From the NCBI GenBank assembly GCA_029938715.1, contig JAOZUK010000009.1, forward strand, positions 3,504-67,503: DNA of 64,000 bases, in the 5' to 3' direction. The DNA comes from Bacteroidales bacterium. GTDB taxonomy: Bacteria > Bacteroidota > Bacteroidia > Bacteroidales > GCA-2748055. The notes beneath the pieces were generated by a model. That model was given only the letters and a program-made list of their open reading frames with translations. It made no database searches and was not told the DNA's origin. Shown in pieces: positions 20,306 to 64,000 of this stretch (the first letter of the stretch is position 1; every line of letters starts with the position of its first letter). The translations under genes were made by a program, and so were the position numbers.

Positions 20306-20836
20306 TTACTCGTTTAATCCTATAAGATACAAATCAGCTTGATGATCTAAGACATAGGCATAGCCTTCAATTATATCTAAGATCTCATCCATGTATAACT
20401 CGCTACAAACAATATACCTAATATCGGCAAATTCATTTTCACTGGTGGGTTTATAATCGTATACGAGAAAATCAAGATCGCGATGTCTAAAGCAAGAATT
20501 AATACCGTTTCGCCTTAAATACAATATCGTCTGAAAAATCTGCTGATCTGTCTTCGTATAACCTTTTGCTTTTAGATTTTCGAACTTAAGAAATGTGGAA
20601 TCTAGTATTCCTATCTCCACATTGTCAATTCTAAGTAAATTATTTTCATCTAGATAATAATTCACTTCACTATAGTTCGATAAGTACCCATTCAGAAATG
20701 TTATTGTATCATTAATTTGTTTTGTTGAACATTTAAAAGAAATTTTATTCCTCTCTTTTGATGGTTCGCAGCTACCGAGAAGAACAAGAGTAGCCAATAT
20801 TATTATATTAAAGTATCTCATCAGTTTAATATTCAT
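20306..20836 (-). CDS. Putative immunity lipoprotein for the main Rhs toxin
   Basis: 176 aa with lipobox LLGSC. Its start overlaps the rhs stop by 11 nt. Confidence 0.5.
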   Translation of the reverse strand: MNIKLMRYFNIIILATLVLLGSCEPSKERNKISFKCSTKQINDTITFLNGYLSNYSEVNYYLDENNLLRIDNVEIGILDSTFLKFENLKAKGYTKTDQQIFQTILYLRRNGINSCFRHRDLDFLVYDYKPTSENEFADIRYIVCSELYMDEILDIIEGYAYVLDHQADLYLIGLNE

Positions 20837-23800: not shown

Positions 23801-26800
23801 GGCCATCGGATGAATAGGTCAGATCAGTTTCAATTGAAGTCACTGAAAGATTTGCACCACGTTTCCCAGATGTTTCTATTGTCTTCGGATTTCCATAAGA
23901 ATCAAAATCACTATACGAGGTTACTATTTCACGATCACTCTTATAAAAGTCCTTTTTCTGGATAAAATTTCCTTTAGTGGATTCATAGGAATAGTAGATA
24001 CTATCAGTCTCGCTATTACCATTTCTAGTGTATGTCTTGCTTACATACTGAGGTAAAGCATTCACATACCAGCCTGCGCTGATGTAGTCATATTTTTCCG
24101 TTATTGTTGCCTCACCGTTCACATTCATTCCCTTTTCAGAGATAAATCCATCATTATTGTAGTCAAACGAATTAGTCGTAGTAGTTCCTGCCTGGACATT
24201 CTGAATAGTTACTGAATCGGTTTTCACCAAATACTTGTGGACATCTATACTATCAATTGATGTATGTGTATCTGTAAATTGTAGATAACCCGCTACCGAA
24301 CTAATTGTATCAGAAACCGAATAGCTATGAAAAAAGGTTGTATCATAATCTAACCAGGACACCTTCGAGATATCTGATAAATCATTTTCCACCTTCCTCT
24401 TCGCAAACCCAAGAAAGCCTTTGCCCTCCAAATGGATCTTTGCTCCTTGATAATTATACTCTATAAATGATGAATCAGCCACCCCATTATCTGAAGATAT
24501 ACTGCTAAGTACATACCAAGGGGCAATAAAATCTATCACCGGAAATATGGCCGTGTTTTCTTTTTTGTAAACCGAGGAGTTGGTGAGTGGTTTATAAGAA
24601 TATCTTGTTTCAATCCCTAATCCATTGGTTATGGAAGTAACAAAATGACCAGGCTTACCAGAATCAACAAAACAAATTTTCTTATCGTTTTTTGGATCAA
24701 CTAATTCAACTATTCCATCCCCGTTAAAATCACCCTCTTTAACATCCTCCCCTAATTTAAAATTGCAGTTAACCGAATCGTAATTATAAGAAATTGTGGT
24801 ACCAGTTATAGAAGGCTTGAAATCATAAAAAATCATTTTCAGTGTATCCTTGCTGAATATGAGTAATTCATTTCTCCCATTTGCATCAATATCTGAGGCG
24901 ATGGCCTTACTGAAGATAGAATCATGACCATCGTAATGCCCTAAACTCACCCTTGGGCCCCTAGATGCGAGGTGATCAATAAAAAGCTCTCGACCTAGAC
25001 TTTCATCAGGGTAGGTAACCGAAGTTTCAGATCGAAATGAAGACCAACAATCGAGGTCGTCAACGTCATTGCATGACACTGAGAGATAAGTTTCATATTC
25101 ATATTCTAATCCATATGCTTCTAAAAAATCCTCCCATTCGGTAATAATATCGGGAAAAGTACACCCTCCAATTGATGTACAATATTCTCCCCAAAGGGAG
25201 GAAACACTAACCGTAATGGAATCAAACTCCTCATTTCCAAGAGAAACATAACCTGAAATTCCATCACCATTTAAATCGATTGATCCCAGATAACCACTAT
25301 TGATGGTATTCTCGTAAGCAAAACTATCAGCTTCAGGCTGGTATAGCATTATATGAAAAAAGGTACTGCTGTCCTGAATATAATCGTAAAAGCCATCACC
25401 GTTAAGCTCCATCCACTCTGGGTCCACTTCGGTCCCCAGCACATGGGTCCGTTTTTCATAATTGTCATCTATATACTGTACTTTTTTATCAATACAGAAT
25501 GGACTGTAACCTAGCTTCAAAATATCTGGTGAATAGTCCATTTCTAATTTAAGACCAAGGTTATCCGGCCCATATTTGAGAGTTCTGACCCGTTGAAAAT
25601 ATGTAGAGGCATCAATATCAAAGTTGATAAAGCGACATACATTGTAATCCAATACAATAGAGTCGGGATAACTATACTTATTTGAATCGCCCCCACAATT
25701 CGCATTTACATAGTCTATCCCATTAAATATGTTATAGTTATCACTTAAATGTGGTATTAGTGGACTCCATTCCAATACCTCAACCATCAGTTCCATAATC
25801 CCATCTCCATCAAAATCTCCAGCACTTACATTCTCGATATCATTGAAGTTATATGTATCTGGAATTGATGATCCATTACAATGAACAATACACATCTGCC
25901 TTAGTTCTGACCAACCCTCATAAACATAGGAGCGAGGAAGAATATCCGAAAAATCATGGACAGTTTTTATACCTACTGTTGAGCCCTTATACAGATAGTA
26001 AACCCAGTTATCTGTGTTAACGGTGACCAAGTCCGTATAGCCATCCCCAGTAAAATCACCTGAGAAATCCAGATAGTCCGGCCCTGAATTAATATATGTG
26101 GTACTGGGGGTTTGTTCCATATTTGGAACTGGGAATTCCCAATTTATTTTTGTTGCATTGAACCTGTAGTTATCTTTATCATATTGGACAATCTCGTCCA
26201 GGAGGGTTTCACTTTTGGTAGTATCATAAAAAAACTCATATTTGCCGAAGGACTCATTGTAAGATTCAATTGTAATATCTTTGAGCAACTGGTCGTTTAC
26301 AATAAGATCGTTATGGATGTAGCCATAACTGATATCATCCCGGGTGGTGTAGTGAAACGAAATAGTATTGACTGGGAATGAGGGAGCTTTTCCACCATAT
26401 TTTATTTCAGAAAGAAGGATCTCGCCAGTATCCTCATCTATCTCATAAGTGTATTCAATGGAATTACCGTTTCGGTCAGATACTTTATTTAACATCCATT
26501 TCCACTCAGTTGAAGCATCAAGTGATAATCTTGAATTTGCGGTGAATCCATATTCCATTGTACGCCCATCTGGAGTTGTGACTTTGAACCAAAATAGGTC
26601 ATAGTAAATTTGCTCCCTTGTGATCTTGATATTTGAGACATGCTCAGTTCTGAAGGAATCTGCATCCAAGCCTGCACTATTTAATGCTATTAGTCTTTGT
26701 CCATCCCAGGCAACTCGACATTCACTATTGGTATCAGAAATTATTGAGCTTTCATTATCATAATACTTTGTTTTCCCGACAGCCACAATCGACGAGAGCC

Positions 26801-27260
26801 CAGACAAACTCCATCCCCTCCCTAATAGTCCATTTCCTGCCTGGCTGTTATAAGTAATGGCAAGCTGGGGAACCATTCCTTTATTTCCTGAAGGAACCTC
26901 TATGGGGATGCTATAGGTCGCTGCCCCTGTTGGGCTTACTCCGGGTTGTCCATTTATCGTGCCTACAATAAAACTTCCATCCAGTGTACCTATGGAGTCA
27001 AGGGTATTGCCAGGTGGAACAGTGTGAGGAGGTTCTTCAATATTCCAGGGATCGGCATTGGCTATAAAGGAGCCATTGCCGTTGGATGAAAATGTGAAGC
27101 CGGCATCCAGGGTAATAGTATTGTGAGCAACGATCTCCACATTATCATAATGCGAAAAAATGGTATCCACCGTAACTGTTTGATTGTATATAAGTGTATC
27201 GTTAGCAAGAACCTGAACCGATACAGATAGAAGCAATAGGGTTGGGAGGATTTGTTTCAT
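20826..27260 (-). CDS. Rhs/YD-repeat polymorphic toxin with SpvB-like N-terminal, FG-GAP/VCBS and TcdB-mid-like regions
   Basis: Signal peptide MKQILPTLLLLSVSVQVLA (ATG at 27260; the track TTG is at 27269). SpvB-like block GMVPQLAITYNSQAGNGLLGRGWSLSG. Several GDFxGDG repeats and many YD repeats (YxYDxxGN). Rhs core end GRIYDPLLGRFLSPDP...YVLNNPLKYVDPSGY, followed by a ~265-aa variable tip. Confidence 0.9.
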   Translation of the reverse strand: MKQILPTLLLLSVSVQVLANDTLIYNQTVTVDTIFSHYDNVEIVAHNTITLDAGFTFSSNGNGSFIANADPWNIEEPPHTVPPGNTLDSIGTLDGSFIVGTINGQPGVSPTGAATYSIPIEVPSGNKGMVPQLAITYNSQAGNGLLGRGWSLSGLSSIVAVGKTKYYDNESSIISDTNSECRVAWDGQRLIALNSAGLDADSFRTEHVSNIKITREQIYYDLFWFKVTTPDGRTMEYGFTANSRLSLDASTEWKWMLNKVSDRNGNSIEYTYEIDEDTGEILLSEIKYGGKAPSFPVNTISFHYTTRDDISYGYIHNDLIVNDQLLKDITIESYNESFGKYEFFYDTTKSETLLDEIVQYDKDNYRFNATKINWEFPVPNMEQTPSTTYINSGPDYLDFSGDFTGDGYTDLVTVNTDNWVYYLYKGSTVGIKTVHDFSDILPRSYVYEGWSELRQMCIVHCNGSSIPDTYNFNDIENVSAGDFDGDGIMELMVEVLEWSPLIPHLSDNYNIFNGIDYVNANCGGDSNKYSYPDSIVLDYNVCRFINFDIDASTYFQRVRTLKYGPDNLGLKLEMDYSPDILKLGYSPFCIDKKVQYIDDNYEKRTHVLGTEVDPEWMELNGDGFYDYIQDSSTFFHIMLYQPEADSFAYENTINSGYLGSIDLNGDGISGYVSLGNEEFDSITVSVSSLWGEYCTSIGGCTFPDIITEWEDFLEAYGLEYEYETYLSVSCNDVDDLDCWSSFRSETSVTYPDESLGRELFIDHLASRGPRVSLGHYDGHDSIFSKAIASDIDANGRNELLIFSKDTLKMIFYDFKPSITGTTISYNYDSVNCNFKLGEDVKEGDFNGDGIVELVDPKNDKKICFVDSGKPGHFVTSITNGLGIETRYSYKPLTNSSVYKKENTAIFPVIDFIAPWYVLSSISSDNGVADSSFIEYNYQGAKIHLEGKGFLGFAKRKVENDLSDISKVSWLDYDTTFFHSYSVSDTISSVAGYLQFTDTHTSIDSIDVHKYLVKTDSVTIQNVQAGTTTTNSFDYNNDGFISEKGMNVNGEATITEKYDYISAGWYVNALPQYVSKTYTRNGNSETDSIYYSYESTKGNFIQKKDFYKSDREIVTSYSDFDSYGNPKTIETSGKRGANLSVTSIETDLTYSSDGRFLLSKEGPLDYKTTYEYDSSTGMLESQTTPNRTNTTLEYGPFGAMKKITGPNLIEKSSRLFWAHDHPSSPDSALFYNWTAVSGTSPALKFFDERGRELRSVAMGFNNDSIYVDTKYDTKGRVSQKSMPYYSTNSPLWTTITYDNFGRMLTVTSPDTAVSTYNYSLLRTTVTTIKGSDTIETSKLVNAMGETTQSEDNIDNVVHYSYYPDGKLKFSYVSTHTSDTTSFSYDAQGNRTSISDPDAGTITSMYDAFGQLLRQINAKNDTTTYQYDVAGRTTKLTDARGDIFYSYVTDTTTAAFGQLDSVYNSDHSLQEVYTYDSDYGMLLTHTRTGVNKTFTNTFTYDWFGRPMTRTYPSDFELEYAYTSNGDLDQVRGNGLTLWSCNDANSLGQITSYSQGGNSTSLTYNMHGELNRVYTAGVMDMCYTFDDMGNLSSRKDDRSDQMEVFEYDNLNRLIGIDYYDPNGYVSTADLNIGYDNCGNIISKTDVSSTINYGEGEKPHALTSIENPNKSYDPPPQNISYNVFNKMSLISDTLSGGGLLELDIKYGLGNQRIKTTQARDSIVERVKYFNGDYEEDSTSAGIKKYHYIYGGTGLTAIFVMEGSGNDTLHYVLSDHLGSLTAIVNASTSEVKNYSFNAWGMPRNASDWTISDTSYLFAGRGFTGHEHLSDFNLINMNGRIYDPLLGRFLSPDPIVQAPGNPNSYNRYSYVLNNPLKYVDPSGYLGDPTTLTKYSPFSEADAYGDNSRFSQAPNMISSYGGGSGFGNNWFDIQTDPTGGWWKAPTGEMVNRYSGKRMNTGEFRSRYLDPSSSISESDKQFVGFGTRYNEDLDIVESHFGWEITEIPMSSNGYKDVTAEFDEQLSNTMIYFSLAKHRFDREFPKDRLRKLLFFRSKVNDHAVFDIKRTSFSRANLGSEYGFYRGQSFRYDDFGNYNFGLAARSFGLSLKDALRGAGLNQIRKLDPDLNNSLGYFDHTRDTQLIIMGFFHEY

Positions 27261-27283
27261 GGTGTGCAAGGTGTTTGTGGGGA

Positions 27284-31371: not shown

Positions 31372-34113
31372 TTATTCAGGCCAGTATTTCACCCGAACAC
31401 GCCTAATAACTGCGATAAAAGTGAGTATTGCTAAAATCCCTAGGATAATCTGAATAGTTCTCCGATGATGGACTATCGGATTTGGGTCTCCAATAACCTG
31501 AAAGCCGGCCCAAAAATGAGGGTGAGTAAATGAGTTTGGAGTGGACTCCAGGTATTTAATTTTTGCTTTTCTTAGTGCTTCGGTTTTATTTAATCCTTTC
31601 GAAAGTAAATGGTAATAATCGATCATAATCCTGGAGCTAGATATATCTTCAATTGGCCAGAGAGTATGTATAACGGATGATGCTCCGGCAAGAAGAAAAC
31701 TCCTTGATATGCTGAGCATGCCTTCTCCTTCATAAAATGGACCCTTACCAGATTCGCAAGAATTTACAACAACCATTGGTGATTCTATGCTAAGGTTACA
31801 GATTTCAAAATCGAATAGTTTTCTAAATGTTGAGTTTTTCTCTATCCCAAGAATTAAATAGGGGTTTCCAGTAATCTCAGAATCTGCGACCGAATGAGTA
31901 GCAAAGTGAAGTATTTTTCCCTTACTAGCCTTTGCAAGGCTGTCATTTGAATGGATATCAATTATTTTTTCACCTTTGAATTCTTTAAGAATTTCTTCAA
32001 TTTCCATTGAGCTATTTATAATCGAAAGGTTCCCATTGTCTGATTCATTAAAATCAGGAGCAATGGCTACTATGTTAGGCGGCCTCCTGAGAATTGCACG
32101 ATCGGGCTTATTTATCATTGTCGAGTTTGGCGCATATCCTATTGCATAATCATAAAGAAGGTAGTTCTGATCAGAGTACGATTTTAAACTGTCAATATCA
32201 CGCACCAATAAATCAAAAGGAATGAGGATCAGCTCACCGTCTGGAATGATTGTGAGATTTCTCGTTCTTACCCAATCCTCTATTGGATGAAAAAGAGCAA
32301 TATATAAACCATGTAACCAGGATATTAATTGCTTATCAGTATTGCCTTTAGACTTGACTGTATTAATAGAAGAAGATGAATTAAACACATTATATATTTG
32401 ATTCGTAAAATTATTGTCCACAATGCTTTGTGATATTCTACATGAATCTTTTGTTATTAAAAATGTATAGATCTTTTGCCCTTTATCAGGATCTTTTTCT
32501 CCTAATGAAAATTCAATGACAGTCTGCTTTTTGGACAACCTAGATTGAAGGTCAACCAATGGGTTGTGATTGTGCTTCGTTTCTGCAAGTGAGTCGAATC
32601 TGTTGCCAAATATTCTTTGGTGAATATTTTCGAAAGATCTCCTAAGAGTGAAAAGCTCATGTTTCATTTGATCTACCTGAACAGAGTTTGACTCCTGGTT
32701 CACTTCTCCCTCATAAATCAGGTTAGTGAGACTAAAGATTTGTTCGTACATGGACAGAAGATTATTTACAGAATCCTCCTCCATACTACTCATATACATC
32801 CAGTTTTTTTCTTTGATTTCGAAATTTAGTTCCAGTGTTTTACTCAGTGAAGCAAATCCGTAAGCCTTCTCTTTATAATATAGTAAACCTGTATACTCAA
32901 ATAATTGAAGTGCCACATCAATTCCATGAACAAAGAAATCTCGCTGATTGCCTATCAGAAATAGACGGCTTTCCCTCGTTAGATAACTATTTTGGATTCT
33001 CGTAAGAACGTAAAAGGCTTCGTCAGCGGTTTTCAGTGCAACTTCAAGTATTTCAATTGCTTTTGTTCTCAAGTTATTACTGTTGGCTAAACCATTCAGA
33101 GCTACCAGTTTGCTATTATAAGTTTTCAAAAGGCGGATGTCAAGCAAAGGCTTTAAATCAACAGGATTGGAAAATATATTGGTATTGTAAAAATCAGGGC
33201 AAATTGAGATTAATGCATCCTGCAGAAAATTTAGCGCTTCTTTATAATCCTCTGATTCTATATAGAATTGAGCAATATGGTAGTAGCAGTCTGAAATATA
33301 TGCATGATTACTGCCATAATTGAATAAATAATTTTCGATTGCTTGATTGTAATAACTGAGTCCCATGTCGTGATCCTTACTCTCAATTAGGAATTGTCCG
33401 TAGTCACGATAAACGTTGCCCAATTGATAGTAGGAGGACCCATGTTCCAACTTCCACCTTTCAACACTTGCTTTATAATACTTGTCTGCCTGTGGAGAGT
33501 TCTTCAATGCTTGATATGTCCGTGCTACATTAAAATAGACGCTTCCCAGGTGAGTGAGGTCATACGCTTCTTTAATTATTTTAGATTCAAATAGAAGTTT
33601 TAAAGCTTCAGTGTAATTCTCTTGATCATAGAGGACTAGCGCTTTGTTTAGTTTTAATAAAGAAGACCTTTCCTGAAACCCAAGGGTAAAATTTGCTTCT
33701 TCAGATAGGAGTCGTTCTGTTTCTTCATAATACTCATTGGCCAATAAATACTCCCCTATGTGCCTGCAAAGAACTCCCTGGTTAATTAGAATGTCGAAAT
33801 AAAGAGTTTTTTCCTGTATGGAGTTCATTTTACAATAGGCTAAAGCAAGTTTATAGTTCTCTTTTGCTTGCTCGTAAAGCCCCAAATTCTTAGCTGCCAC
33901 CCCTAGATTACTATATAGTACAGCAATATTGTAATCAGGTAGATTGTAATCAGATTCTAGTATATGGTTTAGGATCTGGTAGGATTCATAGATATTGCCT
34001 TTCTCTCTGGCTAGCAGGTAACTATTAAACAGATCGCCAGCAATTTCCACATCACTTTGACCAAATGTTATAGTAGTGACGAAGAGAAAAAAGACAAAGG
34101 AATGAAACCTCAT
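31372..34113 (-). CDS. TPR-repeat CHAT-domain (caspase-like) protein with C-terminal membrane anchor
   Basis: 913 aa with a signal/anchor at the N-terminus and many TPR units. The CHAT His/Cys dyad contexts are ILHFATHSVAD and VVVNSCESGKG. C-terminal TM segment IQIILGILAILTFIAVI. Confidence 0.85.
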   Translation of the reverse strand: MRFHSFVFFLFVTTITFGQSDVEIAGDLFNSYLLAREKGNIYESYQILNHILESDYNLPDYNIAVLYSNLGVAAKNLGLYEQAKENYKLALAYCKMNSIQEKTLYFDILINQGVLCRHIGEYLLANEYYEETERLLSEEANFTLGFQERSSLLKLNKALVLYDQENYTEALKLLFESKIIKEAYDLTHLGSVYFNVARTYQALKNSPQADKYYKASVERWKLEHGSSYYQLGNVYRDYGQFLIESKDHDMGLSYYNQAIENYLFNYGSNHAYISDCYYHIAQFYIESEDYKEALNFLQDALISICPDFYNTNIFSNPVDLKPLLDIRLLKTYNSKLVALNGLANSNNLRTKAIEILEVALKTADEAFYVLTRIQNSYLTRESRLFLIGNQRDFFVHGIDVALQLFEYTGLLYYKEKAYGFASLSKTLELNFEIKEKNWMYMSSMEEDSVNNLLSMYEQIFSLTNLIYEGEVNQESNSVQVDQMKHELFTLRRSFENIHQRIFGNRFDSLAETKHNHNPLVDLQSRLSKKQTVIEFSLGEKDPDKGQKIYTFLITKDSCRISQSIVDNNFTNQIYNVFNSSSSINTVKSKGNTDKQLISWLHGLYIALFHPIEDWVRTRNLTIIPDGELILIPFDLLVRDIDSLKSYSDQNYLLYDYAIGYAPNSTMINKPDRAILRRPPNIVAIAPDFNESDNGNLSIINSSMEIEEILKEFKGEKIIDIHSNDSLAKASKGKILHFATHSVADSEITGNPYLILGIEKNSTFRKLFDFEICNLSIESPMVVVNSCESGKGPFYEGEGMLSISRSFLLAGASSVIHTLWPIEDISSSRIMIDYYHLLSKGLNKTEALRKAKIKYLESTPNSFTHPHFWAGFQVIGDPNPIVHHRRTIQIILGILAILTFIAVIRRVRVKYWPE

Positions 34114-52007: not shown

Positions 52008-52640
52008 CTAAAACGGGAAACCATCTTCGCCAGCTAAATCAAAAACCTCAATACGGTCTGTTTTCTCTACAGGATTGTATATTCGTGGTTCTTTCTTTTC
52101 AACTGAAATTCTTATATAAGAAATTCCAATTCTTTCTGCAATCCATTTAAATTGGTCATTCTCGGAAGTAATCGTTATGTATGATTCATACCCATACTCA
52201 TCTCTTTCATTGTTCAATTTGTCAAGCTCAAAACCACCGTTTACTATTTTCACAATGTCCAGGCGATGCAGATATTCTAATACATGGTTTCGGAAAACCT
52301 CATAGTGTTCATAATGGCGATAGATATCGGCAGTTATAAAAAACAAATAAGCCGGTTCAATACCTAATACCTTACAGTTCCCATTTTTATATTCATAAGT
52401 GTAAATTATTCTGTCATAATGCTCATGGTCCCAATGCCATTTTGCAGTGAAGGTTTCTTCAGGGAACTTCAATGAAAGCTCAATGATTTCGTTTTCTATA
52501 TTGTTTTCCCATGCAAAGAAATGTGATTTATTGTTTTTAATCCATAATAAATCGGAATCTGAGTCTTTTACGAAGGTACTCCCAGAAGATATTAGTTCCG
52601 GATTAGTACATTCAAGTACTGTGTATGATTGTTGTGACAT
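52008..52640 (-). CDS. Hypothetical protein, paralog pair member 1, with acidic C-terminal tail ending GEDGFPF
   Basis: Aligns with 52756..53433: IIELSLKFPEETFTAKW / IIELSKVYPTEVFIAKY, GIEPAY / KIEPDY, VLEYLHRLD / VLRHIKRID. Confidence 0.45.
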   Translation of the reverse strand: MSQQSYTVLECTNPELISSGSTFVKDSDSDLLWIKNNKSHFFAWENNIENEIIELSLKFPEETFTAKWHWDHEHYDRIIYTYEYKNGNCKVLGIEPAYLFFITADIYRHYEHYEVFRNHVLEYLHRLDIVKIVNGGFELDKLNNERDEYGYESYITITSENDQFKWIAERIGISYIRISVEKKEPRIYNPVEKTDRIEVFDLAGEDGFPF

Positions 52641-52755: not shown

Positions 52756-53433
52756 TCAAAATGGGACATCCTCATACTCTTCTTCCTTAGCTTCGTCATC
52801 ACTCTTATCCAATGGATAGGCAACCCTGACAACTCGGTTCTTCTCCTTACCAATTAATTGCCATTTTGGAGCGGGAGCTTCTTTTATAAAAGCATTAACC
52901 TCTATAAAAGAGGATCCTATCTTGGTAGCCTCTATTTTAATTTTATCAGTCTCAACATTTATAGCGACTGATGATTTTATATTAAGTTGTCTTTCTCTTT
53001 CATCTGCATTTTGAGCTTTCAGAGTATCACTCATGGCATCAATTCGTTTGATATGTCTTAAGACAACTTTCATTAATCTCTCCAACGGCTCCTTGCCAAC
53101 TATTTTTTCAATATGTGAAATGTTGTACCAATAATCAGGTTCGATTTTGGTGCATTTTGACTTGCCGGATTTATATTTGATGGTCTGGATTTCAGAATCG
53201 TAATAAATATCACCATCCCGGTATTTTGCAATGAATACCTCAGTTGGATATACCTTAGACAATTCAATTATACTTTCATGCATCGTTCCACCACGAGAAG
53301 TGAAATAGTAAATTCCTTTTTTACAAGAGATAAACTTGTTGTTAGGGGTTTTGATGATATCTCTAGGGTCGATTTTTTGTAATAACTGGTTGTTACTTTT
53401 ACAAACCAGTGAAGTTTCATATTCATTTGCCAT
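52756..53433 (-). CDS. Hypothetical protein, paralog pair member 2, with acidic C-terminal tail ending EEEYEDVPF
   Basis: See the paralog. The tail is DKSDDEAKEEEYEDVPF. Confidence 0.45.
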   Translation of the reverse strand: MANEYETSLVCKSNNQLLQKIDPRDIIKTPNNKFISCKKGIYYFTSRGGTMHESIIELSKVYPTEVFIAKYRDGDIYYDSEIQTIKYKSGKSKCTKIEPDYWYNISHIEKIVGKEPLERLMKVVLRHIKRIDAMSDTLKAQNADERERQLNIKSSVAINVETDKIKIEATKIGSSFIEVNAFIKEAPAPKWQLIGKEKNRVVRVAYPLDKSDDEAKEEEYEDVPF

Positions 53434-56548: not shown

Positions 56549-57433
56549 TTATTTAATTATAATTTTGGTTCTTGATTTCTGAACTTCTCCAAAAGGAAAC
56601 ATTAGGACAAATGCATTCCAGGTATTATAAAAAAAGTGATATTCAAATACACATTGATCATCCCCATTAAGGTTCATCTGAAATGAACCATCTTTTCGAT
56701 GGTTCGTGTTACTTAAGTAATCCTGAACAAATGGCCAAGTGGCATTCAAAGTTCTATCCCAATAGATTCTCCCAAATGTCTCTGTAAAAGAATTAGATTG
56801 TATAAAATTCTGTGTTTGACAGTTCAGGTTTTTCAATGATACGCCTTTCAAAACCAAAAGTGCACATCTCTTTGATGAGCACTCTACAAATTTTCTCATA
56901 GTGGCATGATATGAGGCTCCAAATTTCTGTGCAAGAGCAATTGGTGTACCTATTTCAAGCGGATGCTTCTTAATCAACTCGTCAAAATACCTACCTTGGA
57001 ATAGTACCTCAGAAGCAAAATAGCTTGCCTCCAATTCGAACTCTTCTTTTGCGTCAGAGCTAAGAGAGATTTCATCATCTTCAAGGATTTCAAACATCTC
57101 TCTCTGCCATGGTAACACATCATGTCCAACCTCATGAAGTTTTATGAAATTTCTTCTTGGGGGAATCAAATTCGAATCTACATAAATGGTTTTTTTCTTA
57201 CGATCCAATATCCCATTTACCTTTTTCAGGGCATGCTTTAAAATGTCTTTAGATTTTGAAATATAGTTTTTTGGGATCCTTTCTATATATCTACTCTCAC
57301 TTATTTGTAACTCTGTGTATTTTGCAATCTTATCTGTCGGTGTAGGAAACACACCGACAGATTTACTCTGTTTAAGAATATCGTAGGCAATATCCTGTAC
57401 CTTTTCTTGTGATGTGAGAGGATTAATTGCCAT
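56549..57433 (-). CDS. ImmA/IrrE-family zinc metallopeptidase (CapP-like position)
   Basis: HEVGHDVLPW (HExxH) in a 294-aa protein. It overlaps the upstream XRE gene by 11 nt. Confidence 0.75.
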   Translation of the reverse strand: MAINPLTSQEKVQDIAYDILKQSKSVGVFPTPTDKIAKYTELQISESRYIERIPKNYISKSKDILKHALKKVNGILDRKKKTIYVDSNLIPPRRNFIKLHEVGHDVLPWQREMFEILEDDEISLSSDAKEEFELEASYFASEVLFQGRYFDELIKKHPLEIGTPIALAQKFGASYHATMRKFVECSSKRCALLVLKGVSLKNLNCQTQNFIQSNSFTETFGRIYWDRTLNATWPFVQDYLSNTNHRKDGSFQMNLNGDDQCVFEYHFFYNTWNAFVLMFPFGEVQKSRTKIIIK

Positions 57434-57782
57434 CTTTTTGGGATCGTAGGAATTTCAGGTATTTCATCAACTCTTCCTCTTCCTCTTCATTGAGATTCTC
57501 AGAAGATAAGGCAAAGCTTGTTAACGACTTTCTATTATTGTCTCCATTCTCTTTGTTTTTTACAATCCCCGCAGTTATTAATAGGGCATTAAACTCAACA
57601 TTATAAAATTCCGCCAACTTATAGAGAATGTTTACGGATGGACTCTTAATCTTATTATTTTCTAACTGACTAAGATAAGCATTTGAAATCTTCGTCAGTA
57701 ATTCAACTTGCCTAAGTGATAATTTCTTTAATTCTCGCTGGTCCTTAAGCAACTGACCTAAAGTGGGTTTCTTTGTAGCCAT
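57423..57782 (-). CDS. XRE-family HTH regulator (CapH/ImmR-like position)
   Basis: LKDQRELKKLSLRQVELLTKISNAYLSQLENNKIKSPSVNIL plus an acidic C-terminal helix. Divergent from the Ubl operon. Confidence 0.8.
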   Translation of the reverse strand: MATKKPTLGQLLKDQRELKKLSLRQVELLTKISNAYLSQLENNKIKSPSVNILYKLAEFYNVEFNALLITAGIVKNKENGDNNRKSLTSFALSSENLNEEEEEELMKYLKFLRSQKDGN

Positions 57783-57814
57783 GACATTAAGGTGTTGATT
57801 TTCAAGAACAATAT

Positions 57815-57878
57815 AAGCAATTATGCTTGAAATAACAAACAGTGCTTAATACAAGCAACGAATAACAAGCGGTGCTTG
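57815..57878. promoter_or_regulatory. Three AAGCA/TGCTT palindromes (candidate operators) in the divergent intergenic region
   Basis: aagca-atta-tgctt (57815-57828), tgctt-aatac-aagca (57843-57857) and caagc-ggt-gcttg (57866-57878). Confidence 0.5.
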
Positions 57879-57906
57879 ATATAGTTAATGTTATTTCGTA
57901 TCTTTG
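57870..57906 (+). promoter_or_regulatory. Candidate Bacteroidota-type promoter for the small ORF and Ubl operon
   Basis: TATCTTTG (57899-57906) fits the TAnnTTTG -7 consensus. A CTTG at about the -33 position lies inside the third palindrome. Confidence 0.35.
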
Positions 57907-57941
57907 TATCGTTATCGGATTATTTACTTAAAAAATATCAA

Positions 57942-58070
57942 ATGGCGAAAGATTCAGATGGTAAGAAGTATAACCGCATCCCTGGGTATACTCGAAAGGT
58001 TGGAGGGAAGACCGTTAGTGTCAGACCTCATGTTCGTAGTAATCGAACAGATAGTAAAGGAGACAAGTGA
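57942..58070 (+). CDS. 42-aa highly basic small ORF, first gene of the Ubl operon
   Basis: MAKDSDGKKYNRIPGYTRKVGGKTVSVRPHVRSNRTDSKGDK has 12 K/R in 42 residues. The ATG is 36 nt after the candidate -7 box, and the stop is 26 nt before the Ubl ATG. The longer track ORFs 57888 and 57904 start upstream of the putative promoter. Confidence 0.35.
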   Translation: MAKDSDGKKYNRIPGYTRKVGGKTVSVRPHVRSNRTDSKGDK

Positions 58071-58096
58071 TTTATTAATTTTTACAGATTGAAAAG

Positions 58097-58387
58097 ATGA
58101 TTGAAAATTTAAACAGTAACAACAGGAAAAAGGGACAAGATAATGAGCTTGAAATCGTCATCAAGACCCCTAACGGAGACTGGACCAATACATTTTTGAA
58201 GACAACAAAAGTTGCTGAAGTTATTGCTGCAGTTATTCAGCATTTTAACTACGCAAGCAATGGTAAGTATGAGCTTCGTCTTGAGTCCGATCCAGACACA
58301 TTATTGCAGCCGGAGAGACCGCTTGTAAGTTATGGCATTATTGATGGGACGGTCTTAGTGTTCATTGACTTTGGAGCTGCTGTATGA
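58097..58387 (+). CDS. bilA: Ubiquitin-like (single beta-grasp) protein, BilA-like
   Basis: 96 aa. The alternating beta/alpha pattern (ELEIVIKTPNGDW...KVAEVIAAVIQHF...YELRL...LVSYGIIDGTVLVFIDFGAAV) fits a beta-grasp fold. Its stop overlaps the E2 start (ATGA). The fold is inferred, not computed. Confidence 0.6.
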   Translation: MIENLNSNNRKKGQDNELEIVIKTPNGDWTNTFLKTTKVAEVIAAVIQHFNYASNGKYELRLESDPDTLLQPERPLVSYGIIDGTVLVFIDFGAAV

Positions 58388-58866
58388 GTGTGCTGAAAGA
58401 AGTTTCTTTAATGAAAATCAGAAAGGAACTTAAGGATTGTATTGATTATGGAAAAAGGATAGGTTGGATTTTGTCAGACATTGATGAATCCAACCTATCT
58501 TATACCGTTCAGATGAGTTCTCCTATTGATGGCGAAGTTTATATAGTTGAAGTTATCTTTGATAATTACCCTGAGATCCCTCCACTAATAGATTTTGTTC
58601 ATTATCAAACTGGGCAGAAGAATATTCCTAATGCCTACCCTAAAAACAAGGACTCTTTTTTTCACCCGAATGGCCCATGTATATGCAATCCCTGTTCTCG
58701 CAAATCTTATAAAGAATTTGTACGTACAGGTCCTCATGGCGATTGGAAATTGATTGGATGGCAAAAGAATCCCAAAGTTGGGACACTAATAAGCATGGAT
58801 GCAATATTAAGAACAATCTATTCACGAATAAGCAATCCCGAATTTTATGAAAAGAGGATGGGTTAA
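58384..58866 (+). CDS. bilB: E2 (UBC-like) conjugating enzyme homolog, BilB-like
   Basis: 160 aa with FFHPNGPCIC, that is the HPN motif followed by a candidate catalytic Cys, as in UBC-fold E2s. N-terminal helix MKIRKELKD. Confidence 0.7.
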   Translation: MSVLKEVSLMKIRKELKDCIDYGKRIGWILSDIDESNLSYTVQMSSPIDGEVYIVEVIFDNYPEIPPLIDFVHYQTGQKNIPNAYPKNKDSFFHPNGPCICNPCSRKSYKEFVRTGPHGDWKLIGWQKNPKVGTLISMDAILRTIYSRISNPEFYEKRMG

Positions 58867-59452
58867 TAAGTCATTTCAGTACTTAAAGCTTGGAGATAGG
58901 ATTTCTCCAGCGGATAATGTCAGATATTATTTTAGCATTGAAGTATTGGAATTTACAGAGTCCGTATTAAAAGAATATGGGTCAATTGAACCCTCACATG
59001 AAGGCATTGTTCTTTGGGCAGGTAGAAAGAATGACAATAAAATCATTGTTAATTCAGCAATTGCTCCGGACACAGATTCTTCCGGCACCCATATAATCAT
59101 AAAACCGGAGTCGATGGTTAGGTTTATTACTTTTTTGTCTGATAGTAAACTTACATATGTTGGGCAGATTCACTCTCATCCAGGGAGCTGGGTTGGCCAT
59201 TCATCAGGTGATAATGATCTCTCTTGTTTCAAAAGAGAGGGATTAATATCTTTTGTTGCCCCTAACTATGGATTAGAAGGAATACTCCCTTTTAGTCAAT
59301 GTGGAGTTCACAGATATATGGATGGGAATTTCACTTTGTTGTCCAAAACTTATGTTGCAAAAAGAATGAAGATTCTTGGGATTCAAGCCAAATTATTGGA
59401 TCTGAGAAATAAAATGGATATAAGATGGAACGTGAAGAATGGTATAGACTGA
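58847..59452 (+). CDS. bilC: JAB/JAMM metalloisopeptidase, BilC-like
   Basis: HSHPGSWVGHSSGD gives an exact H-x-H-x7-S-x2-D JAMM motif, with an upstream Glu (SHEGIVLWAG). Overlaps the E2 gene by 20 nt. Confidence 0.8.
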   Translation: MKRGWVNKSFQYLKLGDRISPADNVRYYFSIEVLEFTESVLKEYGSIEPSHEGIVLWAGRKNDNKIIVNSAIAPDTDSSGTHIIIKPESMVRFITFLSDSKLTYVGQIHSHPGSWVGHSSGDNDLSCFKREGLISFVAPNYGLEGILPFSQCGVHRYMDGNFTLLSKTYVAKRMKILGIQAKLLDLRNKMDIRWNVKNGID

Positions 59453-60831
59453 GAAATGATCGGATGAATAGAGTGGATGATGTGAACCTTGCTCAATCCA
59501 CCAAAAGATCAATAGGTGTAGTAATTTCTCCAGAGCACCTTGATCACTATTCCATTCAGATTATGTCCTACATGTCGTTGAATATGCTTTCTCGGTGGTG
59601 TCCTTCCTTTACAATAGATCTACCTGATGAAAATCAATGTATCATTCCTGGATTTAGAAATAGAACACTTAAGGAAGTTGCTTTAGAGTTAGTGCAAAGA
59701 AATGATCCTTTCGGAGAATTTACTGTGAATAGCATCTTACCATCAGATTACAATATAGTACTATATATAGGTGAATGTAGTCATGCAGAAGGATCAAATA
59801 TGATCTGGATTGATGCAGAAGGATGGCTTGCAGGGTATGGTCAGAATATGTATAGTAATCTTAATAAGCGTAATAAAAATAACAAGAATCCAATTGGTCC
59901 TTCGTTCGCTGCCTGTTTAGGTGTGTCAGAAGTTTTAAAAAGGCATCTTGGTCTTCAAGTAAGTGAAAGTTTCATCCGGTGGTATTCTATTTATGATTTA
60001 CAATCGGATTCCAATCATGTTACTCTTTCTAACCCACCTATTTCAAGATTATTGGAGGTTGGAACGCTGCACCAAATAGGTTGTGGAGCAGTAGGATCCT
60101 CATTGGACTTGCTGTTCTCATTTCTCAACATCAAAGGTAACATCCATCTCATAGATTATGATAGTGTGTCTGTTCCTAATACTGCCAGTTCAATGGTATT
60201 TACGGCCAAGGATGGATTAGAAGAAATAGATAAAGTGGACAGCTGTTACAGTTTCTTAGAAAAGGTTGATGGACTTATACCTTACCCTCACAAATGCGAC
60301 TACGGTACATTTATCAAAAAGCACGATTTGTTAAATGATTATCCAGATATAGTTTTGTGTTTAGCTAACGAGAAAAACATCTGGTCAACAATCCAACATA
60401 ATTATCCACCTTTGGTTCTTCATGCCACGACTTCACCAAATTGGGGGGTGAATCTTGGAAGACATATCCCTTTTCAAGATTGGTGCATTGTTTGTCGTTT
60501 TGGTATAGATGAGTACGAAACAATTCCTGTATGCTCTCAGGCCAAGGTAGATTCTGGAGGGGAGAAGGAGGAAATTTTAGGAATATTGCCCTTTCTATCC
60601 ACAGCTGGTGCAATATTAATACTATCTGAAATTCTTAGATCAAGAATAGACGGATATTGCCTAACCAAAGATAATTTTGTGCAATTTTCATTTAAGGATA
60701 CCAATGTAGGATTTATCAAGTTAAAGTTGTCAAGAAACGAAAATTGCACTGTATGTAATAATCAGACAAAAGAGGAATATTCATTTCTTAGGAGACAAAT
60801 ATCATATAATCAAATTCATAAGGGTGAATAA
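59425..60831 (+). CDS. bilD: E1-like (ThiF/MoeB-fold) adenylating enzyme, BilD-like
   Basis: Rossmann motif IGCGAVGSSLD and two CxxC pairs (WCIVCRFG and NCTVCNNQ), typical of E1/ThiF zinc sites. Overlaps the JAB gene by 28 nt. Confidence 0.7.
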   Translation: MEREEWYRLRNDRMNRVDDVNLAQSTKRSIGVVISPEHLDHYSIQIMSYMSLNMLSRWCPSFTIDLPDENQCIIPGFRNRTLKEVALELVQRNDPFGEFTVNSILPSDYNIVLYIGECSHAEGSNMIWIDAEGWLAGYGQNMYSNLNKRNKNNKNPIGPSFAACLGVSEVLKRHLGLQVSESFIRWYSIYDLQSDSNHVTLSNPPISRLLEVGTLHQIGCGAVGSSLDLLFSFLNIKGNIHLIDYDSVSVPNTASSMVFTAKDGLEEIDKVDSCYSFLEKVDGLIPYPHKCDYGTFIKKHDLLNDYPDIVLCLANEKNIWSTIQHNYPPLVLHATTSPNWGVNLGRHIPFQDWCIVCRFGIDEYETIPVCSQAKVDSGGEKEEILGILPFLSTAGAILILSEILRSRIDGYCLTKDNFVQFSFKDTNVGFIKLKLSRNENCTVCNNQTKEEYSFLRRQISYNQIHKGE

Positions 60832-60957
60832 TAAATGTAAAATATATACATAGTTCTACTAATCCTCTTACAGTATTGATTTATTCAACTTTTTTTGACG
60901 ACCTTGGATTTACTTTTCCAATTTATATAGGAATAAGGTATATTTTTCATTTCTGTT

Positions 60958-60965
60958 TATATTTG
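60958..60965 (+). promoter_or_regulatory. Candidate -7 box for the deaminase gene
   Basis: TATATTTG fits TAnnTTTG, 17 nt upstream of the ATG at 60982, inside a 150-nt AT-rich gap after the E1 gene. Confidence 0.3.
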
Positions 60966-60981
60966 TTTTAAACTGTTTAAT

Positions 60982-62499
60982 ATGGGAGATCCGGCAAAAT
61001 CTTTAATCACCGAAGAAAAACCTAAAGACTCTCTCGATATAATAAAATCAACACATACGTCTGAGATTGTAATAGCTCTTTGTGGTCAACTTGGAACTGA
61101 TTTGAAAAAAATAGAAGAATTATTGACTACTGAGCTAAAACATAAATTTAGATATGAATGCCAGACTATTAAGTTAAGCTCCTTTATTTCAAGATATACC
61201 GATAAAAAGCTTTCATCAATCATAAATTCCTATGAAAGGATTAAAGCTGGGATGGATGGTGGCAATGAATTAAGGGAAAAATATGACAATCAAATATTGG
61301 CCGAGTTTGCTATACAAAAGATTATTTCAGATCGAGTTAGCGAAGAATCTACTGAAAATCTTGAGCAAGAAAAATTCGATGACAGAAGAAAGTGTTTTAT
61401 TATTGATTCCATAAAGCATCCAGCTGAGATTAAGCTCTTAAATGAGGTTTATAGAGATTCATTTTATGTTATTGGAGTTTTTTCTCCAATAGGACTAAGA
61501 GCGAAAAATCTCGAAAAATCGTTTGGCCTAAATTCAATATCAAAGGTATATGAGCTTATCAATCGAGATACTGGTGAGGATTTATTATATGGTCAAAAAG
61601 TTGAAGAATCATTCATAAATTCAGACTATTTTATCAGAGTTAGTTCTAACGAGAAAAGAAAGCTCAAGCCTAAGATCGAAAGATTTTTAAACTTACTATT
61701 TGACATTGGTATTAATACTCCTTCTCCAAATGAGACCCCTATGTACCAGGCCACTGCAGCGGCTGCAAATTCAGCTTGTCTTTCAAGGCAGGTTGGTGCC
61801 TGTATTACTGATTCAAGTGGAGATATTCTGTCATTAGGATGGAATGATGTTCCGACTTATGGGGGAAACTTATATCCTAACTCGGATTTGGATATAGATG
61901 AACGATGTTACAATATTGGAGATTGTGAGTGCGCAAATATAAAAAAGAAAGAAAAAATTAAGAGTGATATACTCACTGAGTTAAATAACGCTGAAATTTT
62001 GAAGCCTGGTGAGCATACCTCAGTTATCAACGATATTCTTGACAGAAATGGGATCAAAAACCTTATAGAGTTTGCTCGTTCAATACATGCGGAAATGCAT
62101 GCAATAATTCTTGGTAGCCAAAAGTCTGGCAGCAAAATGGTTGGAGGAAAGCTATATTGTACTACATATCCATGTCATAACTGTGCTCGTCATATCATTG
62201 TTGCTGGAATTAGTGAAGTATATTACATCGAACCATATAAGAAAAGTTTAGGAATTGAATTGCATGCAGATGCTATTACAGAAGATGAAAATGAAAATAA
62301 TAAGGTGAGAATTTTAATGTATGAAGGTGTTGCACCAAAAAAGTACATGGAGTTTTATAAATTAGTTTCTGATGATCGGAAAATAAAGGTGAAATATCAG
62401 GATTTATACACAATAAAACCAAAAAGTACGATTACCTTAAGGGCCCTTCATCAGCTCGAAGCATCGGTTTCAGAAAATCTCAAGAAGAAAGGCTTGTGA
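60982..62499 (+). CDS. Two-domain protein: degenerate P-loop kinase-like N-domain plus dCMP/cytidine-deaminase zinc domain (anti-phage dCTP-deaminase / AvcD-like architecture)
   Basis: C-terminal CDA motifs SIHAEMHAI (H-A-E) and YPCHNCARHI (P-C-x2-C). The N-terminal ~230 aa carry a Walker-A-like remnant, VIALCGQLGTDLK. The total of 505 aa matches the described fusion. Confidence 0.7.
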   Translation: MGDPAKSLITEEKPKDSLDIIKSTHTSEIVIALCGQLGTDLKKIEELLTTELKHKFRYECQTIKLSSFISRYTDKKLSSIINSYERIKAGMDGGNELREKYDNQILAEFAIQKIISDRVSEESTENLEQEKFDDRRKCFIIDSIKHPAEIKLLNEVYRDSFYVIGVFSPIGLRAKNLEKSFGLNSISKVYELINRDTGEDLLYGQKVEESFINSDYFIRVSSNEKRKLKPKIERFLNLLFDIGINTPSPNETPMYQATAAAANSACLSRQVGACITDSSGDILSLGWNDVPTYGGNLYPNSDLDIDERCYNIGDCECANIKKKEKIKSDILTELNNAEILKPGEHTSVINDILDRNGIKNLIEFARSIHAEMHAIILGSQKSGSKMVGGKLYCTTYPCHNCARHIIVAGISEVYYIEPYKKSLGIELHADAITEDENENNKVRILMYEGVAPKKYMEFYKLVSDDRKIKVKYQDLYTIKPKSTITLRALHQLEASVSENLKKKGL

Positions 62500-62877
62500 T
62501 AAGTTTATTTGCATCCAAGATTATTGTATTATACTTTTGAAAAGTAAATTTATTAAGATGTCTGGTAATAGAAAGTATGATTTTAGGAATTCAGGAACAA
62601 CCTACAAATCTGCCTTTATAGCTAATCAAGAACAGGGTAAAATCATTCCGATAAATTCTAAAGACCAAGCATATTCGCAGAAGATCTTAGATAAGATTCA
62701 TTCATTATCAAAAGATTAGTTACTGATATAAATTTAAACGACGATTGATTGAACACTGCTCATTTCTGAGGTGAATGAGCTTTCCTGAGGTTAATAAAAA
62801 ACTCAATCTTCGTCCCCTTTTATTCACTCTTGAACAGAAATTGGTCAGTTAGAAACTGGGAGGAAATCAATATCTTG

Positions 62878-63132
62878 ATGATAATCCACTCCGATTCATT
62901 TGCTTACGATCACGACCTTTCCAGTTTCATTGTCCTCGATTTTAATGTAAAGGAAACCATCCTTTTCCCCTATCTCAAGAATCCTGACAACATCACTGTT
63001 ACGCACTCTGATTTAAGCAGGGCATACCTGAACTTCATCCCCTATGTTATCACAGATTACTACAAGGAGAGGTGCTGTACAGAATATGTGTGGGAAGGGA
63101 TTGGATTTGGAGAGTGGATAGTGGGAGGATAA
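62878..63132 (+). CDS. Hypothetical small protein
   Basis: 84 aa from the first ATG (MIIHSDSF...); the track start is TTG. No family was recognised. Confidence 0.2.
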   Translation: MIIHSDSFAYDHDLSSFIVLDFNVKETILFPYLKNPDNITVTHSDLSRAYLNFIPYVITDYYKERCCTEYVWEGIGFGEWIVGG

Positions 63133-63211
63133 TAACAAAATTAAATCAAGCAGACAGCCACACCAGTTAATCTGCTGGCGAACGTATCTAATGATTAGAT
63201 ATTGATCTGAT

Positions 63212-63502
63212 TCAATTCAGAAAACAGGTTGTTCCTGAAATTATTTGTGTTGCACCTGGTTCCGAATGCAGACCCAAATCCAATACCATTTTCACAAGCT
63301 CGTCCAACCGGATTCCAAGGCCATCCTGACAGCCATCCTGAGCCAAAATAAAGCCATTCTTCACCTCTATCCTGCCGCAGACAACTGGAGTACCATCTGC
63401 ATCCCAACCTCGCTTAATTGTGCCGTAAAACCTGCGGTCTCGAGAAGCTTGCGCCATAAACAATTCTGCGATTTTGAACTGGTTTTCTTTTTTCTTGTCC
63501 AT
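63212..63502 (-). CDS. Hypothetical small protein
   Basis: 96-aa ORF with an ATG start (MDKKKENQFKIAELF...). No family was recognised. Confidence 0.3.
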   Translation of the reverse strand: MDKKKENQFKIAELFMAQASRDRRFYGTIKRGWDADGTPVVCGRIEVKNGFILAQDGCQDGLGIRLDELVKMVLDLGLHSEPGATQIISGTTCFLN

Positions 63503-64000
63503 GATGGTGAAAACGAGTTCAAAGTTACTTAAAATTCAGATAATGAGCAATAATGAGGATTTGGTCATGGATTGTACTTTAAGCAAAGTAGCGATTATTA
63601 TCAGCCTTCCTTTTCAAATAATTATAGTCAATTAGTCGCCAATTGCAATGACCATCAACGGCAGTCAAAAATTGATCAATCAAGAATACCTTCTCGATTT
63701 CCATATCTAATAGTAATGGTCTAATCTGATGACTGGCCAATCTGTTTTGGCATGTGCCGATCCTTAGTCTGAGCTTTATTATAAATACTACATGAGATGG
63801 AATTGTACATTAGGAGGGAGGGGAAGGGATCCCCCGGCCGGGGATACCCCTGGGAGACACCCACTTAGGAGGCCGGGGTGGACTTGAGAGGTCCTCTCGG
63901 TCAGAAATAAAGGGAAATCTGAGATATTATTTAGTATTAGGAAGCATCGGCGGGATAAAAATTCCACTAAAAAATCTGGAAATGGAATTTGATAGGTCAA

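Follow-up and report, generated by a model that had tools for sequence, protein, structure and literature searches.

A dCTP deaminase gene and its conserved downstream mini-gene: a candidate two-gene anti-phage module in a Bacteroidales bacterium

Overview

The stretch of DNA analysed here (the window, 64,000 nucleotides (nt) of contig JAOZUK010000009.1, positions 3,504 to 67,503 of the forward strand, assembly GCA_029938715.1) comes from a Bacteroidales bacterium and carries at 60982-62499 a gene that is, with near certainty, a member of the anti-phage deoxycytidine triphosphate (dCTP) deaminase (DCD/AvcD) family. Taken alone this deaminase is unremarkable, a further entry in a catalogued defence family and of use chiefly for annotating its island. 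The interest of the locus lies in a conserved, unnamed mini-protein partner of 53 amino acids (aa) encoded directly behind it, and the locus is a two-gene variant of a known system. The mini-gene is very probably a real, linked protein-coding partner gene, and the locus as a whole is best explained, in our estimate with fair likelihood, as a two-gene module of a deaminase and a mini-protein inhibitor. How such deaminases are silenced and triggered is understood only for Vibrio-type systems, where an RNA is responsible, and the DCD of the Escherichia coli type counts as a single-gene system; a protein partner conserved across phyla would offer a testable control mechanism for the whole dCTP deaminase family.

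Identity of the deaminase

The gene and the residues on which its assignment depends are as follows.

60982-62499, + strand: predicted anti-phage dCTP deaminase gene, 505 aa, ATG start; N-terminal P-loop-kinase-like domain (residues ~26-240) and C-terminal zinc deaminase domain (~250-460)
61081-61098, + strand: nucleotide-binding motif of the family, C34-G-Q-L-G-T39, with no Walker lysine; C34 and G38 invariant and G35 nearly invariant
62086-62094, + strand: H369-A-E371, predicted zinc ligand and catalytic glutamate; invariant, and aligned with the HAE of solved deoxycytidine monophosphate (dCMP) deaminases
62170-62184, + strand: P397-C-H-N-C401, predicted zinc-binding cysteines (C398, C401); P397, C398 and C401 invariant

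All statements of invariance refer to a family alignment of 30 homologues (A3). Membership of the DCD/AvcD family is assigned because a curated equivalog model, the domain architecture, the catalytic residues and the genomic context agree. The NCBIfam model NF041025 (anti-phage dCTP deaminase) is matched at 457.1 bits against a cut-off of 400 (E 5.7e-137), with residues 28-461 covering model positions 1-432 of 437, the PADLOC dCTPase model gives 511 bits (E 1e-153), and Pfam dCMP_cyt_deam_1, which covers the deaminase zinc-binding region, is matched as well. Identity to the enterobacterial enzymes is ~36-40%, including 36% to AvcD of plasmid p58 from enterotoxigenic E. coli (ETEC; E 7e-87, collinear end to end), with which the window enzyme shares the same TTYPCHNCARHI at the zinc-binding cysteines. 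An AlphaFold2 model built with 30 homologues as input (predicted local distance difference test (pLDDT) 85.7, predicted template modelling (pTM) score 0.83) resembles dCMP deaminases in its C-half by Foldseek (TM-score 0.65-0.81), among them the bifunctional dCMP/dCTP deaminase of chlorovirus PBCV-1, and P-loop nucleotide kinases (3h0k/3lw7) in its N-half (TM-score 0.79), among them a Sulfolobus adenylate-kinase-related protein. Both halves also have sequence matches in the PDB, where searches by sequence and by Foldseek found no solved structure of a full-length relative. DCD is defined by an N-terminal kinase-like domain and a C-terminal cytidine/dCMP deaminase domain in a protein of >350 aa (Tal et al.), and the window protein has both domains in its 505 aa.

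An earlier note, made from the letters of the window, had described this open reading frame (ORF) with an HAE and a PCxxC motif, which are indeed found at residues 369-371 and 397-401, and the DCD/AvcD identity that it proposed is borne out by the profile scores and the two-domain structural matches above. It had also named a 'degenerate P-loop', CGQLGTDLK, which lies where it was placed (residues 34-42); the idea of decay did not survive, as the segment is the conserved motif of the family, and LCGQLGT (33-39) pairs with LCGFAGC in the alignment with ETEC AvcD. In the nucleotide-binding motif of E. coli DCD the double substitution G29A/C30A abolishes defence (Tal et al.), and in that of V. 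cholerae DcdV the substitution S52K inactivates the enzyme (Hsueh et al.). From such characterised homologues we infer enzymatic activity and a role in phage defence.

The contrary outcome foreseen in the earlier note, a grouping with ComEB or with tRNA- or riboflavin-pathway deaminases, was not seen. A housekeeping dCMP deaminase of the ComEB type fused to a housekeeping kinase would find some encouragement in same-order genomes, some of which have a canonical P-loop kinase gene directly 5' of a ~175-aa dCMP deaminase gene, possibly as an ancestral pair. However, the ComEB model (TIGR02571) reaches only 50.9 bits against its cut-off of 219.45 and covers residues 365-422 only, on the anti-phage model the split pair reaches no more than 43-49 bits, its Walker A is a canonical GAGKGT where the window enzyme has CGQLGT, and the window's own genome has a separate short dCMP deaminase, located on another contig, while the fusion is found in none of 24 congeners. 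The curated cut-offs and the distribution thus refute a housekeeping identity, to which we leave practically no probability. Two such pairs (L164:1851-2910 and L165:1437-2481, genomes G026 and G029) consist of a kinase gene (Walker A GTxGAGKGT, 184-187 aa) overlapping the start of the ComEB-like deaminase gene; their housekeeping context is conserved, both halves are weak on the anti-phage model, and the defence enzyme may descend from such an unfused pair.

The deaminase gene is accessory. None of the 24 same-genus genomes searched has a full-length copy, and the NF041025 cut-off is exceeded in only 2 of 41 related genomes. Its nearest homologues (62-68% identity) have varied neighbours, which include type I restriction-modification systems, helicase/Mrr genes, MmeI-type enzymes or non-defence genes.

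A conserved mini-gene directly behind the deaminase

The region 3' of the deaminase contains three features.

62508-62539, + strand: promoter-like pair, TTTG (62508-62511) and TACTTTTG (62532-62539), the latter 18 nt before the mini-gene ATG
62558-62719, + strand: mini-gene, 53 aa, ATG start, protein ending in SKD; open in 12 of 12 subclade loci, window included
62758-62780, + strand: weak hairpin, GCTCATT-(9 nt)-AATGAGC, with TTTCCT after it, where the two-gene unit may end

An alternative TTG start upstream, at 62537, would give a 60-aa mini-protein. The mini-protein has a basic N-half, a core G26-K-I-I-P-I-N32 and a C-terminal helix at residues 33-52; in AlphaFold2 the N-half is disordered and this helix is the only one (pLDDT 83-93). 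Its isoelectric point is 9.6, against 6.3 for the deaminase. The sole conserved features of the spacer in the subclade alignment are the TTTG and a TTAATTTG/TAnnTTTG box 27-28 nt apart, which is the spacing of the -33/-7 promoters of Bacteroidota, and the mini-gene appears to have a promoter of its own. At the other end, the fold of 62715-62830 is no better than that of shuffled sequences (z -1.0); in the related loci L097 and L098, clear hairpin and U-run terminators stand right after the mini-gene (z -2.5 and -2.7).

Each of the close homologues has a small same-strand ORF directly 3' of the deaminase. The wider survey comprised 86 related loci and the window (87 in all) from Bacteroidota, Alpha-, Beta- and Gammaproteobacteria, Acidobacteriota, Nitrospirota, Verrucomicrobiota and metagenome-assembled genomes of Bacillota, and considered downstream ORFs starting between -60 and +200 nt of the deaminase stop. 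In 85 of the 87 loci such an ORF, of 47-113 aa and on the same strand, was found at -55 to +70 nt from the stop, frequently overlapping it; one of the two exceptions has merely 123 nt of sequence after the deaminase stop. The wider family shares a layout of a basic N-terminus, Q-L-x-L-x-F, a variable linker, [KR][VI][IV]x[LIF] and a short helix-like tail. A Fluviicola locus has a 55-aa ORF 5' of the deaminase (L016:9699-9866) besides its 53-aa partner on the 3' side.

That the mini-gene is translated, and is neither a chance frame nor an RNA, is concluded because cross-phylum profiles, codon usage, the absence of RNA structure and independent retrieval all point the same way. A profile built from proteobacteria only was run on the 9,456 six-frame ORFs of the Bacteroidota loci, where its first 29 hits were all in-frame downstream ORFs; the reverse test gave them as the first 15 hits. 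Within the subclade the frame is open in all 12 loci, for which the chance expectation is 0.2-1.3% per locus at this A+T content, and it always terminates right after (S/T/A)KD with varying stop codons; a conserved Ser is encoded by both TCN and AGY, and a conserved Leu by TTA, CTA and CTT. A profile search of 1.84 billion proteins returned 66 matches, nearly all of 53-77 aa and aligned end-to-end, and both of the two non-seed matches looked up stand directly behind a deaminase of 521-523 aa. The C-terminal 33 residues of the subclade mini-protein align with the family core in hhalign (P 2.2e-5, 76% probability), for which the reversed control gives nothing. The mini-protein itself has no match in Pfam, NCBIfam, PHROGs or PADLOC, and a protein partner of the deaminase is not described in the literature searched, which did not reach many subscription-journal papers.

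The same evidence bears on the proposal that the deaminase needs no partner for defence, as in the single-gene system described by Tal et al., and that the mini-gene is a co-inherited passenger whose role has nothing to do with the enzyme, for example a small DNA-binding or anti-defence protein. DCD is catalogued as a single gene, neither PADLOC nor NCBIfam has a partner model, and one locus (L079) lacks the partner; yet the linkage persists in Bacteroidota, Proteobacteria, Acidobacteriota, Nitrospirota, Verrucomicrobiota and Bacillota, where all other neighbours vary, start-stop overlaps of the two genes are frequent, and the context-free profile matches lie behind deaminases in both cases looked up. 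A passenger is accordingly rated as a quite unlikely explanation. Two further candidates were discarded. Mimicry of the deaminase strand-helix 59-100 by the mini-protein gave an hhalign P of 0.15, against 0.21 for the reversed control, and a Rosetta-stone fusion failed because in the long homologues L079 and P0080 the extra length is N-terminal and not C-terminal.

RNA or protein: the 5' gap and the mini-gene region

AvcI/DifV has been reported as a non-coding RNA of 152-174 nt, located 5' of the enzyme on the same strand inside a 504-nt intergenic region, and the earlier note had pointed to the gaps on both sides of the deaminase as places for an analogous RNA or a mini-ORF. The 5' gap (60832-60981) is the 150 nt between the E1 stop of the preceding operon and the deaminase ATG and, as the earlier note held, it includes a box, which is promoter-like.

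60958-60965, + strand: TATATTTG box, which fits TAnnTTTG in a sequence and regular-expression scan; 16 nt before the deaminase ATG

TAnnTTTG is the -7 promoter consensus of Bacteroidota. Boxes similar to TATATTTG also lie 5' of the deaminase in L009, L147 and L015, and not in L011 or L014, where the upstream gene stops 13-36 nt before the deaminase ATG. The gap is not conserved in the subclade, it folds no better than shuffled sequences on either strand (z +0.20 and -0.50), and the Rfam scan of 60700-64000 gave no match at E <= 1; with neither conservation, structure nor an Rfam match, an AvcI-like RNA in the 5' gap was rejected. A same-strand 5' RNA antitoxin of ~150-175 nt, as in the type III toxin-antitoxin system AvcID, was not found at the window locus.

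An RNA antitoxin of the AvcI kind could instead have moved to the 3' side, to 62500-62760, with the open frame incidental or dispensable. In Vibrio the 174-nt antitoxin locus does hold an ORF, whose start codon and ribosome-binding site can be destroyed with function kept, and three ORFs at the AvcI position of enterobacterial and Vibrio plasmid loci stand within the top four of 630 ORFs on the mini-protein profile, a hint of common ancestry. Nevertheless, the mini-gene is conserved at the amino-acid level across phyla of very different G+C, its conserved Ser spans the TCN and AGY codon families, RNAalifold finds no conserved base pairs in 10 diverged mini-gene sequences, the region folds no better than shuffles (z +0.38), it has no Rfam match, and the ETEC p58 ORF scores at noise level on the profile (E 8.5). 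A structured RNA in the mini-gene region was rejected on the RNAalifold and folding results, and the relocated RNA antitoxin as a whole is considered improbable. Of the regulators suggested in the earlier note, therefore, the mini-ORF at 62558 stands as a conserved protein-coding gene, and the small RNA in the gaps found neither conservation, structure nor an Rfam match.

Proposed mechanism and the sign of regulation

The locus 60958-62780 would be an anti-phage module of two genes, complete in itself, that sits close to the integrase end of a mobile island rich in insertion sequences (IS). The lysine-less P-loop kinase-like domain would bind nucleotide and the zinc deaminase domain (H369/E371, C398/C401) would convert dCTP, and probably dCMP, into deoxyuridine forms, a loss of deoxycytidine (dC) nucleotides that would starve an infecting phage. 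The region 62558-62719 would be translated into a basic 53-aa mini-protein with the strand-like core GKIIPIN and the C-terminal helix, which would hold the deaminase through its conserved core and helix and prevent its activity in healthy cells. Once host transcription or translation is shut off by a phage, the mini-protein, being short-lived, would not be replaced and the stable enzyme would become active, such that a protein would do here what AvcI does as an RNA in Vibrio.

Labile antitoxins are typically small, basic and largely disordered proteins with one helix. An action of the mini-protein as inhibitor or antitoxin is suggested by analogy, because the mini-protein is likewise small, basic, disordered and of one helix and because the Vibrio enzyme is toxic without its adjacent antitoxin locus and is activated by transcription shut-off; for this role taken separately we see the chances as evenly poised. 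Direct binding, the inhibitory sign and the lability of the mini-protein are the parts that we infer.

Several points weigh against an inhibitor module. The evidence from the locus is sequence evidence, on which the mini-protein could act as an inhibitor or as an activator/adaptor. E. coli DCD has been reported as a single-gene defence (Tal et al.), and therefore a partner may be dispensable for defence in some family members; L079, one of the 87 loci, has no adjacent small ORF despite enough sequence. The window's subclade is missed by the proteobacterial profile alone, and what links it to the wider family is its position and size, the shared core and the single profile-profile match. In addition, the search for a natural fusion of the mini-protein to the enzyme found none, and an amphipathic character of the C-terminal helix is not significant, its hydrophobic moment being reached by 333 of 2000 shuffles.

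Clamp-binding-like motif in the wider family

Among 78 mini-proteins from outside the window's subclade (76 from loci L016-L096, together with L158 and L160), the motif Q[LMIVF]x[LMIF]x[FLIM] occurs near the N-terminus (median position 11) in 57, against 4.2% of 6,900 size-matched control ORFs. Several of the peptides are identical to validated clamp-binding peptides (QLDLF, QLNLF, QLELF, QLSLF), and other forms fit the beta-clamp consensus (QLSLDL, QLxLxF). Known beta-clamp-binding proteins carry QL[S/D]LF or QphixLxL (where phi is a hydrophobic residue), for example QLSLPL at the Hda N-terminus, and a similar peptide lies in the disordered N-terminus of most mini-proteins of the wider family; in contrast, the window mini-protein and its 11 closest relatives are without it (none of 12 subclade members). 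On this comparison the window's subclade has lost the N-terminal clamp-like motif.

The motif lends support to a mini-protein that acts as a positive factor, an adaptor or sensor by which the deaminase would be targeted or activated. We hold such a role to be improbable, though less so than a relocated RNA. The positive-factor proposal would add docking on the beta sliding clamp in most family members, with dC depletion coupled to the state of the replisome, an extension given the same low likelihood. The frequency of the motif and its identity in several cases to validated peptides speak for it; however, its absence from all members of the window's subclade means that it cannot be the core function here, and the motif would equally fit an inhibitor titrated by the clamp, clamp binding being itself a prediction from motif resemblance.

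Relation to known systems

The preferred reading, a deaminase held by a mini-protein inhibitor, has likenesses to three systems. DCD (E. coli AW1.7, Tal et al.; NF041025, and dCTPdeaminase in PADLOC/DefenseFinder) belongs to the same family and shares the architecture of kinase-like and zinc-deaminase domains, the essential motifs and the defence-island context, but is described as a single gene, whereas the window locus and most of its relatives have a mini-protein gene on the 3' side. AvcID (DcdV-DifV; V. cholerae VSP-1, V. parahaemolyticus and ETEC p58) has a homologous deaminase, flanked on the same strand by a small locus, and follows the logic of a labile inhibitor and a stable toxic enzyme, which by analogy would be expected at the window locus too. 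It differs in that AvcI is reported as a 5' RNA, whereas the conserved element of the window lies 3', has promoter-like boxes of its own and evolves like a protein. Type II toxin-antitoxin systems likewise encode a small, largely disordered protein beside a potentially toxic enzyme, with the start-stop overlaps that are seen in many relatives of the window; the window partner, however, is encoded after the toxin, no DNA-binding domain can be recognised in it, and its inhibition and lability are presumptive.

The AvcI position of ETEC p58 and of other enterobacterial and Vibrionaceae plasmids is annotated, by the Prokaryotic Genome Annotation Pipeline (PGAP) or by depositors, as a hypothetical protein of 56-61 aa with a G[NK]V..[LF] core.

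L150:2618-2803, L153:705-887, L154:2224-2409 and L155:2169-2339: ORFs at the AvcI position, with weak resemblance to the mini-protein family

The four best ORFs of the plasmid loci on the mini-protein profile were three upstream ORFs and one downstream ORF (Pantoea), at E 0.003-0.45. Homology to the ETEC p58 upstream ORF was not upheld, its score being noise, and with the related plasmid loci weak a common ancestry of the mini-protein and the AvcI-locus ORFs is left as a hint; AvcI is still called a non-coding RNA in a review of 2025.

A broader reading would join these observations: dCTP deaminases would generally be two-gene systems, in which a mostly disordered regulator of 50-80 aa holds the enzyme by a [KR][VI][IV]x[LIF] core and a C-terminal helix and carries an N-terminal clamp peptide in most lineages, the AvcI locus would be a relocated relative, and the window's subclade would be the minimal version. 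We offer this synthesis tentatively and think it rather less likely to hold than to fail. If it is true, the clamp peptide would tie deaminase control to the beta clamp, so that immunity would read the status of the replisome or of host synthesis, and the window's subclade would separate the enzyme-binding module from the clamp-docking module. A partner gene would also alter how the system is detected, as defence-finding tools use one gene, and would raise the question of whether the AvcI locus is translated as well; the clamp-like motif, if real, would link nucleotide-depletion immunity to the replication machinery.

Genomic neighbourhood

The deaminase follows an operon (region 56549-60831) that encodes a ubiquitin-like protein (Ubl, 96 aa), an E2-like protein (160 aa), a JAB protein (201 aa) and an E1 (468 aa) in the order of BilA-D, matched weakly by the PADLOC Bil models (E 1e-3 to 1e-10). 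Upstream of it, and divergently transcribed, are the regulators CapH-like helix-turn-helix protein (57423-57782) and CapP-like M78 peptidase (56549-57433). The deaminase might be supposed to be an effector or fifth gene of this operon, given that it lies on the same strand 150 nt past the E1 stop with no terminator-like site between. Against such membership, relatives of the window Ubl, E2, JAB or E1 occur in none of 146 related deaminase loci (1.32 Mb), the deaminase has its own promoter-like box, and the upstream genes of its closest homologues are unrelated; we consider membership very unlikely. Since no deaminase locus has relatives of the operon, the deaminase is, as the earlier note had supposed, a separate unit stacked beside the Bil-like operon and is not a part of it. 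The window E1 is present in only 1 of 301 genomes of the order. In two unrelated genomes, CapH/CapP-like pairs that are 38-51% identical to those of the window occur 2-3 kb downstream of a dCTP deaminase module (L052:9887-11098 and L087:8865-10102).

The locus L099, an identical copy from another metagenome, extends beyond the end of the window and includes an integrase.

L099:2303-3643 (~64092-65432 in window coordinates, past the window end), - strand: tyrosine integrase, 446 aa (Pfam Phage_integrase), ~1.4 kb after the mini-gene

In the close homologue locus L009 an integrase likewise stands directly after the mini-gene. A tRNA-Pro direct repeat that might delimit the island was looked for in the sequence available and none was found. 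Between the deaminase module and the integrase, at 63810-63900, lies a stretch of ~90 nt of very high G+C (GGAGGGAGGGGAAGGGATCCCCCGGCCGGGG...) within a region of ~33% G+C; it occurs once in the genome, Rfam gives no match for it, and its fold is no better than that of shuffles.

The window as a whole is a flexible region with IS66, ISL3 and IS4-type transposases, a serine recombinase, an Rhs-type toxin and cargo of the type IX secretion system. Further genes in it include the following, of which TPR-CHAT proteins are often tied to defence or signalling.

52008-52640 and 52756-53433, - strand: neighbouring paralogous ORFs of 210 and 225 aa that have no match in Pfam; both have an acidic tail and a ...PF terminus
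31372-34113, - strand: TPR-CHAT protein, 913 aa, with a caspase-like protease domain
20826-27269, - strand: Rhs-type polymorphic toxin, 2147 aa, with SpvB, TcdB middle region, RHS repeats and a C-terminal Ntox44 domain

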